A stretch of DNA of 64,000 nucleotides from Phoronis australis (lineage: Eukaryota > Animalia > Phoronida). The stretch covers positions 821,990 to 885,989 of the forward strand of contig NMRA01000087.1 of NCBI GenBank assembly GCA_002633005.1. Direction: 5' to 3'. Within the stretch, counting starts at the first letter, position 1. Every line of letters starts with the position of its first letter. A program made the position numbers and the translations under genes. The notes below the pieces were generated by a model. That model searched no databases. It saw only the letters and a list, made by a program, of their open reading frames with translations, and was not told the DNA's origin. Positions 6,901 through 9,811 of the stretch are shown here, piece after piece.

Positions 6901-9811
6901 AATCTGTACTTGTTATTGGCTTCTGCTCTGTTATATAATGCAATCGTGCTTGTTTGAACCGACTTCGTAGGTTGTTGACATTTTGAATATGAAGTGATAG
7001 TGATTTTTATTTTGTTTCAGAATTCCGCAGTGGCAAATCTCCCATTCTTGTGGCTACCGATGTCGCTAGTAGAGGATTAGGTTTGTTTTTAAACTTTGTG
7101 CTAAAATATCTCTGTTTACTGGATTACTATCCAATCATTTGGTTCGAAAATTAAGAACTACTTTTCGCAGTTTAACCATGAATGTAAACTAAACTTGTTG
7201 GTTTATAACTGATGCCCTATTGTTTTTGGTGTGTCGAGTTAGATGTTGCTGTGATGAGGCTTGTTGTGCTAACTGCCTTCTAGTTGTCTATCTCTAGGTT
7301 TGAAGACAGGAAATGGCCGGCATGACTCACTGTTAGTTGGCATAAATGGGAGGAGTGGTAACAGTCAGGTAAAACTCTGTGGCACTTTAGTAACAATAGC
7401 GCGGGTATGGTGAGAGCGATTGTGTCGAGATTTCCGCTTAGAGCGCTTTGGCTGCAACAACGTTCAGGCATAGTAAACGGTGGGATTTGAAGCTGCCGCA
7501 TGGAGCAGTTTTGGTGATCTTGCTGTTACTTGCGGTCAATCAGCGGGCCGGCTTGAATGCTGCAGTCCTTCAAATACGTCTCAACTGGTATAACCTCAAC
7601 AACAGGCTTTCATGAAACAACGCTGGAACTTTATGCGACGGCCTGTTCAACGCACACACACACACACACACATCCTGGTCTCTTTCTAAAGATTGGGTGT
7701 ACACGCCAGTCTCAAAACTGTTAACAGATGTAGCGAGGATTTAATATTTGTCAATATTTATGGACACAGTCTTGCATACCCCCGGGTTTGGCTAGAGACA
7801 GAGTTTGATTTGAATTACTCCCAGTGTTGTTGCCAGCTGTCATGTCGGAAAGAGCCTGTCAATTTCAGAGAACAGATGCAAGTGTTGGATCACACATCGA
7901 TATCACCTGTGCCCCTTCAGGGGTCTTCCCTCACTCACCATGGAACTTTGCGATATGCTGTTGCAGCACATAGTAAACCCAAGCCTGGTAAATGCCGCGT
8001 TAATGTTTCTAAGTGGACTTCGTTCCGTGAGAACTGTTTAGACGTGAAAATGTCAAAAACGCAAGTTTCCTCCTGTCGGACGGATGCTGTAAACCTGCGA
8101 GAGCAGTGTCCGGACAACTGGCTAAAACGCACGCGCAAGCAGGCTTGTATTATTACTCTTTGTCGCTGCTGCTAGTTTTTCCGTTCAGTTCACTGAAACC
8201 GACTGATGCATACTCCAGTTTGTGTTTGAACTCCTTGTGAATGTTGAATCGGGGTGCCGCATGCACGCACAAATATTGTAGGCTCTGTTAACTGTAATGA
8301 TGTTCGTACCCTTCGTGTACATATGTAAAATTGCTTTGTTTGTAGCAGGCTTGCAGTTGAACAGGTAAGTGGTTGTAATGTTGCTTATGTGGCAGAGCTG
8401 TTGTTATTGTTCTGTACAGGCTGTAGGCGTTATCAGTCTTGGCCGTTTGTACAACCTCGATCACATGAAGGAGATAAAATCGATTAGTCGAGTGTGCATT
8501 AGGGTTGAAGTTTCCATGGTTTTCTCTCTTCAGTTGACCAATTCACTAATTGGCCCGAGCTCGCTGGGCATTTCCCTTGCAGTGATCATTTGAAACAAAA
8601 GGCAAAGAGATTAGTGACGATGCATCTGGTTTGACAATGTAATCATTATTTGCTCTGTTCTTTCTTCCCCCCTCTTCCTTTGCTGCTCTCCTGTGGGTGT
8701 ACTTTGAACAAACAGACGTGGATGACATCAAGTTTGTGATCAACTTCGACTACCCGAACTCGTCTGAGGACTATGTGCATCGCATCGGTCGTACGGCGCG
8801 CGCCTGCAAAACTGGCACGGCATACACATTCTTCACGCCGGAGAATGTAAAGCAGGCCAATGACCTTTTGAATGTGCTGCGAGAGGCTAAACAGCAGATC
8901 AACCCTAGACTGTTGGAGCTGGCCGAGAGCTCCCGCTTCCACTCGGGATCGCGTAAGTTGACCTTCTTTTGCCTGCTTCTTGTGCTATCTGCCAATATTT
9001 TATTGATTTGCATTGCAGCTTCCCAAGTAGCAACTTTAAACAAAACTTTAATGTGACGTTGGTTCATGACAGGGCGACACCAGCTATGTTTTGGTTCTGA
9101 CTTTTGCAACATGCCAGTGTGGCCAGTGTATAACTGGAGCTGTTATTGAATGTGTTGTTTACATTCCTGTTGTCAATATTGCGACTTCATATTTTGTACA
9201 TTTACGGAAGCCAAAAGTCTTGCAGCGATATGACATGTCCTGTGGTTCTTGTAGGTCGTAACAGGTTTCGTGGAGGTGGTGGTGGTGGGTTCAACCGGTC
9301 GAATTCATCATCAAGTCGAATGTCTGGCAGCTCCGGAGGTTACGGCAGTCGCCCCAGCAGCTCAATGGGTCCTAGTCGTGGAGGAGGTTTCTCTGGCAGT
9401 CGCAGTGGTTCCAGCTTTGGCAGTCGTGGTGGCAGCAGCTACAGAGGCAGCTCGTCTCAGTCCAGCAACCCACCATCTCTCATGTCTAGCAGAACGACTG
9501 GTAGCACATACGGCCAGCAGAGCAATGGCTCCTACGGTCCGAAGCCAACACCGGCTGGCAACAGTGGTTACCGCCCACCCCCACAACAGACCAATGGCTA
9601 CTCGGCCCAGCCTCCACTCCCAACATCGGCACCACCACCAAAGGCAGCACCGCCAGCGGGCAATGGTGACTACAGTAACTTGCAAAATGTGGCCAAGATG
9701 TACAGTCAGTGGATGAACCAGCAACAGCCGACAGCTGCATCTGCGTATCCCCCACCCCCTCCGGGCCCTCCCCCTTCAAAGGGTGCCTACACGGGTTATC
9801 AGTACCAATAG
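998..9811 (+). CDS. DDX5: DEAD-box RNA helicase DDX5/DDX17 (p68/p72/Dbp2 family), 5'-partial, spliced
   Basis: Exons 998-1262, 1766-1859, [2014-2147 or 2209-2342], 4598-4663, 5136-5277, 5580-5740, 6074-6246, 6533-6705, 7021-7080, 8716-8952, 9255-9811 (TAG). All introns are GT-AG with matching phases. Motifs: RGG-rich N-terminus, LRKPKWD..FEKNFY, Q motif PT(A/P)[57 protein letters not shown], then a G/S/P-rich C-terminus. Best read as a co-orthologue of vertebrate DDX5/DDX17. No ATG exon found in the window. Confidence 0.96.
2014..2147 (+). CDS. DDX5: Helicase alternative exon A (Q motif + motif I), 134 nt
   Basis: ttttccag|AC...TTG TCA|gtaagt; encodes (D)[44 protein letters not shown], phase 1 to 0, no stop. 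Confidence 0.9.
2209..2342 (+). CDS. DDX5: Helicase alternative exon B (Q motif + motif I), 134 nt
   Basis: tgtttcag|AT...CTG GCC|gtaagt; encodes (D)[44 protein letters not shown], same length and phases as exon A. Confidence 0.9.
3383..3980. mobile_element. MITE with hAT-like TIRs in a helicase intron
   Basis: CAGTGTTCTCCAC (3383-3395) and GTGGAGAACACTG (3968-3980); no clear TSD. Confidence 0.65.
6769..6807. repeat. Perfect 18-bp inverted repeat with a 3-nt loop
   Basis: AGAGTTCACTTACACACC-cac-GGTGTGTAAGTGAACTCT. Confidence 0.95.
7081..8715 (+). promoter_or_regulatory. Motif-V intron of the DDX5/DBP2 family (position known for retention and autoregulation), with a predicted long-range RNA structure
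   Basis: Interrupts ASRGL(G|AC = D)VDD at the position of human DDX5 intron 11 and the yeast DBP2 intron. Weak donor gtttgt, ~99-nt AG-free zone before the acceptor, nested complementary segments at 7513-8590. Confidence 0.75.
7653..7671. repeat. (CA)n microsatellite
   Basis: About 9 CA units inside the structured intron. Confidence 0.9.

Follow-up and report, generated by a model that had tools for sequence, protein, structure and literature searches.

The window, a stretch of 64,000 nucleotides of Phoronis australis DNA (contig NMRA01000087.1), carries close to its start a DDX5/DDX17 (p68/Dbp2) gene on the forward strand (Table 1). The gene model is open over 687 amino acids, and its core shares 73-79% identity with DDX5/17 of molluscs and vertebrates; a protein tree of DDX5/DDX17 gave this 687-residue model no supported placement. 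All modelled junctions are supported by raw reads, and poly(A) was found at 10294. Four near-identical 21-nt tandem units were seen by eye just 5' of the exon at 998 (887-969), and a transcript on the opposite strand (10626-12200) terminates near the 3' end of the gene.

The same gene contains two tandem, mutually exclusive exons of 134 nt (2014-2147 and 2209-2342), which encode the ATP-binding segment from the Q-motif to motif I. Either exon alone leaves an open frame, and both together do not. In the three RNA runs, 49, 36 and 7 reads joined 1859 to 2014, 56, 61 and 169 reads joined 1859 to 2209, and no exon-to-exon joint was among those listed; on this basis, the first exon (exon A, 2014-2147) makes up from about 47% down to 4%, depending on the sample. 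These exons are two regulated ATP-site variants of p68.

Table 1. Features of the DDX5/DDX17 gene and of its retained intron (window positions).
Feature	Position	Strand	Remarks
DDX5/DDX17 (p68/Dbp2) gene	998..10294	+	coding exons from 998 to stop 9809-9811; first exon outside the model
60-nt exon ending ...DVASRGL	7021..7080	+	directly 5' of the conserved intron
Retained DBP2/DDX5 conserved intron	7081..8715	+	1635 nt; weak donor GTTTGT; purine-rich acceptor end 8707-8715
Internal branch point, pyrimidine tract and acceptor	7267..7297	+	TGCTAAC 7267-7273; AG 7296-7297; from sequence, comparable signal in orthologues
Predicted stem, 5' arm	7298..7391	+	core GCATGAC 7320-7326; main-helix pair probabilities 0.9-1.0
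Predicted stem, 3' arm	7791..7872	+	core partner 7839-7848
Partner strand of the earlier proposed helix	7641..7654	+	predicted to pair locally with 7601-7608 instead
Candidate second internal acceptor	8288..8348	+	TTAAC at 8288, AG-free stretch, tandem TAGCAG 8343-8348
Internal donor CAG/GTAAGT (CAGGTAAGT)	8362..8370	+	full consensus; probable decoy or rarely used poison donor

The intron following the 60-nt exon lies at the RGL/D position, between ...DVASRGL and DVDDIKFV..., and its true donor (TAG/GTTTGT, 7078-7086) is the only one among the 10 modelled introns of the gene to start with GTTTG. According to the accounts cited here, the RGL/D intron keeps its position and length from yeasts to human and is poorly spliced (PMC4695336), reports of helicase feedback through the DBP2/DDX5/DDX17 intron go back to work on yeast DBP2 and concern both yeast and human (PMC4695336, PMC1920232, PMC3763533), and depletion of p68 in human cells removes partly spliced DDX17/DDX5 RNA (PMC1920232). 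As they are described in these accounts, the introns of yeast DBP2, S. pombe dbp2 and human DDX5 and DDX17 share with the Phoronis intron the gene family, the position, the length, poor splicing and an abundant retained form: it occupies the RGL/D position in a DDX5/17 orthologue and is both long and inefficiently spliced. The intron, its retention and a DDX17 poison exon are already known, and the setting that a sequence-only reading of this DNA had proposed is correct, the intron being that of p68/DBP2, for which negative feedback is on record. A search of window positions 1-11000 against Rfam gave no match at E<=1.

Retention was followed by mapping about 18-19% of each of three stranded raw-read runs, labelled as the same species, to positions 6500-9400. 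Within the intron, all 16 bins had a read depth of 24-128, entirely in the sense direction; the upstream neighbouring intron had a depth of 0 and the downstream one of 0.6-3.4. The only joint listed within the intron was that of 7080 to 8716 (44, 41 and 88 reads, 173 in total), and its comparison with the neighbouring junctions gave unspliced fractions of about 43, 46 and 23% per run. Among the joints listed for the three runs none fell at 8364, 8346, 8349, 8365 or 7298, no inserted letters were seen, and depth showed neither a step at the internal donor nor a rise limited to 7298-8364; since joints were listed from three reads up, use of the internal sites up to about 2-5% per run could be hidden. 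None of the indexed runs recorded as RNA contained this stretch, and the X1 contigs contain spliced forms only; such contigs cannot show absence. The non-coding form that is abundantly seen is full retention of 7081-8715. One A>G site, sought as an A-to-I editing mark of a duplex, was present in the intron (7149, in one run only), and no germline-like variants were listed between 7222 and 8025 in the three samples. Position 7780, at a run of C, showed a low-level C>T change in all three runs (2/78, 6/55 and 6/114), which may be an artefact or editing.

The internal donor is the full-consensus site that the sequence-only reading had described and the sole 7/7 donor in the intron. A 7/7 donor occurred in 89 of 3000 dinucleotide-shuffled introns (3%), the exact 9-mer in 13 of 3000 (0.4%) and a donor of 6/7 or better in 43%; chance alone would not typically give a site like this one. 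The tandem acceptor upstream of it is likewise present, and the 19- and 16-nt micro-exons that it would delimit both run to the TGA at 8723-8725, as calculated earlier. As to the long exon from 7298 that the donor might close instead, the acceptor ending at 7297 exists, but the stop would be at 7411-7413 and not at 8723, and no joint at 7298 is listed. Reads joining 8364 to 8716 or 7080 to 8346 or 8349 were sought in this untreated RNA and were listed in none of the three runs; the proposed micro-exon poison isoform left neither joint nor inserted letters, the form actually seen being full retention. A second strong donor (TAG/GTAAGT, 9859-9867) is located in the 3' UTR, 50 nt past the stop codon, which equals the NMD boundary distance. 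It is used by none of the joints listed and depth continues across it, so strong donors can be idle.

The internal donor had further been suggested to be buried in the strongest helix of the intron, formed by 7641-7654 and 8352-8366. This complementarity is real (14 bp interrupted by a single bulge, -21.5 kcal/mol for the duplex alone), and a partner this good for the 15-mer 8352-8366 was found in 2 of 200 shuffled targets, but the helix is not predicted to form. Nor is it the strongest, as 5 of the 540 intron 15-mers match or beat its pairing and the best 15-mer duplexes of 12 shuffled introns ranged from -18.3 to -23.7 kcal/mol, which puts the observed -21.4 at chance level. In the global ensemble its pair probability is about 1e-17 and forcing it costs 21.7 kcal/mol, a penalty that still amounts to 6-7 kcal/mol in sub-regions without the competing stem; the donor is predicted to lie in a local hairpin with 8308-8335, the stability of which does not exceed that of shuffles (z -0.7). 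The helix crosses the stem 7317-7326/7839-7848, and ViennaRNA, which cannot model pseudoknots, covers only structures in which such crossing helices do not coexist. All six orthologous donors analysed are without a long-range partner better than shuffles. A further candidate, in which 7644-7662 would engage the true acceptor at 8692-8710, was likewise rejected (P about 1e-16). A donor-opening switch through 7641-7654 is therefore unsupported, the helix being unpredicted and without orthologous counterpart and the micro-exon joints being missing from those listed; a helicase-sensing structure as such is plausible.

A long-range stem is predicted at the internal acceptor, where 7317-7326 pairs with 7839-7848 at a probability of about 1 and the extended duplex reaches -39.7 kcal/mol. 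The domain 7280-7880 has a z-score of -2.5, with 1 of 20 shuffles equally stable. The acceptor AG itself is predicted to pair with the far arm, with probabilities of 0.52-0.75 in Phoronis, 1.0 in the amniote-like locus L004, 0.47-0.81 in the bivalve-group locus L011 and 0 in the coral locus L006; in the whole-intron ensemble the Phoronis acceptor region is partly paired only (mean unpaired 0.44).

For comparison, 17 orthologous loci were found by their junction pattern, so that their identical RGL/D position is a matter of search design; the pattern also required a weak GTT[AT]GT donor, the presence of which in the 17 loci is therefore no evidence of conservation. Usable intron sequence was available for 16 loci, L017 holding only 30 nt of intron. 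The coral group comprises ten loci, among them L013, which matches an Orbicella protein at 100% identity. The bivalve group comprises L003 (95% identity to a Mactra protein), L009 and L011, and L004 is an amniote-like DDX17 (56 of 58 residues identical to a solved DDX17 structure). Direct identification was made for L013, L003 and L004 alone; the other loci were assigned to groups by similarity, and L001, L002 and L007 are unplaced. None of the 17 loci aligned to the Phoronis intron by BLAST. A pyrimidine tract followed by AG occurs 160-290 nt into the intron in Phoronis, corals, bivalves, L001 and, less clearly, L004, and the branch point before this AG is mostly clear, with TACTAAC invariant in all five aligned corals. 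GCATGAC is found 23-76 nt past the internal acceptor in Phoronis and 13 of the 16 loci (nine of the coral group, three of the bivalve group and L004), and is absent from L001, L002 and L007. A GTCATG partner lies 500-1800 nt downstream in all GCATGAC loci that reach far enough, L003 and L009 ending earlier. GCATGAC is the sole 7-mer common to the four lineages in intron nt 21-350; among 2000 shuffles, 54 had any shared 7-mer and 12 a shared one that was not of low complexity. Pairing of the core is predicted by whole-intron folds in Phoronis, L005, L006 and L011 and by duplex and domain folds in L004. Flanking pairs differ between the three bilaterian sequences yet remain paired (C-G/A-U and C-G/U-G/U-A), which is suggestive, being a matter of three sequences and no covariation statistic, while the invariant core itself reads as sequence constraint rather than covariation. 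The stem core includes GCAUG, the RBFOX motif, and its invariance may owe as much to protein binding as to pairing.

Three bilaterian-type lineages contain internal GTAAGT donors: L001 and L004 share the exact CAGGTAAGT with Phoronis, and in all three bivalve loci the GTAAGT is kept, within a conserved 11-nt block, about 190-200 nt past the acceptor. A conserved strong internal donor is absent in corals; CAY/GTGAGT near the end of the coral intron was considered for this role and rejected, its GT being lost in L005. Across loci, the donor is about 190 to 1760 nt distant from the internal acceptor. Since corals have the stem without a conserved strong donor, the donor is not a universal part of the arrangement: in loci that do not include close relatives, the internal acceptor recurs in four other lineages and the strong donor in three, with corals lacking it. 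At intron nt about 350-470 of the bivalve loci L003, L009 and L011, a stem of 8-9 bp with one compensatory pair closes a local hairpin around the conserved donor (z-scores of -0.1 to -2.3), which is closer to the idea of a concealed donor than the Phoronis intron itself. In L003 (291-2090) the upstream exons are contiguous and only this intron is present, whereas L009 and L011 have upstream introns; L003 is likely a transcript-derived contig showing retention in a bivalve or, less probably, a retrocopy. The coral loci (L005-L016) contain several intron blocks of 40-90 nt that are near-invariant in five aligned corals and mutually complementary.

Two known systems resemble parts of this arrangement. 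Decoy exons with rare junctions have been reported to promote retention of introns longer than 1 kb in SF3B1, OGT, ARGLU1 and DDX39B (PMC6097662). As in the examples given there, the Phoronis intron combines retention and a length of more than 1 kb with an internal splice-site pair (acceptor 7297, or 8345/8348, with donor 8365), and the junctions of decoy exons are rare or undetected unless NMD is blocked. Unlike the Phoronis pair, which spans 1067 nt from 7297 to 8365 (or 16/19 nt) and is known from sequence alone, those decoy exons are 29-369 nt long and minigene-tested; DDX5 and DDX17 are not named in five supplementary files of that study. In plants, opening of a helix over an alternative 3' site of DRH1 is reported to raise the alt3 and retained forms (bioRxiv 10.64898/2026.01.23.701338). 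Like the predicted stem, this DEAD motif (DRH1/RH46) sits at an internal 3' splice site in the gene of a DDX5-like helicase; it is a helix proposed to sense helicase activity, and it yields alt3, cassette and retained forms (bioRxiv 10.64898/2026.01.23.701338; PMC12218528). Its description is that of a local hairpin in DRH1 intron 4, 19-20 bp long and with a loop of 3-5 nt, restricted to land plants and with alt3 detected, whereas the arms of the Phoronis stem are about 500 nt apart (500-1800 nt across animals), the stem lies in the RGL/D intron and no alt3 is listed at a floor of about 2-5%. Because of the local hairpin and its position in DRH1 intron 4, the animal stem is not a member of this motif but a functional analogue.

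The matching human introns also contain internal sites. In the data of PMC12894984 that bear on it, inclusion of a poison exon of human DDX17 is 0.7-0.9% for one sample group (control according to the text) and 89-99.5% for the other. The matching DDX5 intron has an acceptor 118 nt from its start that is supported by 3-26 reads versus 4209-5289. The upstream DDX17 exons of 66, 142, 161 and 60 nt match the Phoronis lengths, several internal DDX17 sites are used at below 1% in one sample group, and DDX5 too has a 60-nt exon 5' of the matching intron. The DDX17 poison exon differs in being about 236 nt long and lying 2.6 kb into a 3.9-kb intron; it is matched to Phoronis by intron, not by site position. 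The passages on the DBP2/DDX5/DDX17 intron in the sources cited above name no structure as a sensor. We found no description of a coral-to-amniote stem or of a DDX5/17 decoy in the open-licence literature: neither DDX5 nor DDX17 occurs in the text or five supplements of PMC8052449 except for one knockdown accession, though its full catalogue may lie elsewhere, and PMC12350175 does not mention DBP2.

Taken together, we give a close to even chance to the reading that the internal donor is a decoy holding the intron in and that the helicase sensor is the predicted stem 7298-7391/7791-7872, not the 7641-7654 helix. When helicase is scarce, the acceptor inside the intron would be concealed by the stem, and splicing would join the weak true sites across it. 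When helicase is abundant, the stem would be opened or remodelled, with U2AF/U2 engaging the acceptor at 7297 and U1 the donor at 8365; competition of this strong internal pair with the weak terminal sites would leave the transcript unspliced, with spliced poison RNA as a minor by-product. Counting for this reading, all three runs retain the intron while neighbouring introns are cleared and list no joint at the internal sites as against 173 canonical reads, the true donor is the gene's only GTTTG one, GCATGAC recurs with its partner behind an internal acceptor, decoy exons have precedent in long retained introns (PMC6097662), and the direction that we infer, from helicase to retention, agrees with p68 depletion in human cells (PMC1920232) and with opening of the DRH1 hairpin in plants, as far as these are described in their sources. 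Counting against it, decoy action and helicase sensing are both deduced here, GCATGAC is missing from L001, L002 and L007, corals have no conserved strong donor, the far arm leaves the AG of L006 uncovered, the core is invariant, the Phoronis acceptor region is paired only in part, a decoy of 1067 nt far exceeds the known 29-369 nt, and the strong donor in the 3' UTR is idle. It is unlikely, if by no means far-fetched, that the internal sites are truly spliced once the stem opens, with a 7080-7298 joint, with or without 8364-8716, producing a long poison exon ended by the donor and an NMD isoform that is destroyed fast. The stop at 7411-7413 and the detection floor of about 2-5% leave room for such an isoform, and the human DDX17 poison exon and the DDX5 internal acceptor in use in the matching introns (PMC12894984), together with the reported build-up of plant alt3 in NMD mutants (PMC12218528), lend it precedent; against this, none of the three runs lists the joint, depth does not rise over 7298-8364 and the abundant non-coding form is full retention.

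That the donor at 8365 is an idle pseudo-site, retention resulting from the weak true sites and the conserved stem alone, appears rather improbable. The frequencies in shuffled introns (3% for a 7/7 donor, 43% for 6/7 or better), the corals without a conserved donor, the variable acceptor distance (about 190-1760 nt) and the unused strong donor in the 3' UTR all fit an idle site, but the exact 9-mer, expected in 0.4% of shuffles, recurs in L001 and L004, and the bivalves keep an 11-nt block around GTAAGT within a hairpin with one compensatory pair. Very little probability attaches to the original proposal, in which 7641-7654 hides the donor and excess helicase produces a 16- or 19-nt poison micro-exon: its nominally strong complementarity (2 of 200 shuffles), its correct frame arithmetic, the TTAAC and AG-free stretch 5' of the tandem acceptor and the chance that the crossing helix is a pseudoknot beyond ViennaRNA have to be set against a pairing probability of about 1e-17, a penalty of 21.7 kcal/mol, the crossing of the conserved stem, chance-level strength, six of six orthologous donors without the helix and no micro-exon joint or insert among those listed. 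Least credible of all is a recursive (zero-length) splice site at CAG/GTAAGT with removal of the intron in two steps. The juxtaposition of AG and a strong donor would suit it; however, three AGs lie just upstream (ending at 8345, 8348 and 8356), no joint of 7080 to 8365 is listed and depth is flat, and introns with recursive sites are typically much longer.

With regard to the family as a whole, it is possible, though we put it forward as a tentative proposal, that animals have a helicase-sensing switch of their own, in which a GCAUGAC/GUCAUG long-range stem kept since the coral-bilaterian split gates the internal acceptor. Together with the downstream GTAAGT donor, the stem switch would set retention or poison splicing. 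If this is true, p68 autoregulation would have its missing cis-element in the stem, and the plant DEAD motif would have a convergent counterpart in animals. No sensing RNA element is named where the cited sources deal with the feedback, and the paired core would offer two exact targets for mutation, probably in human DDX17 too. Splicing responds widely to the dosage of DDX5/DDX17, which is also of importance in cancer and could be tuned by an antisense oligonucleotide directed at the stem or at the decoy.
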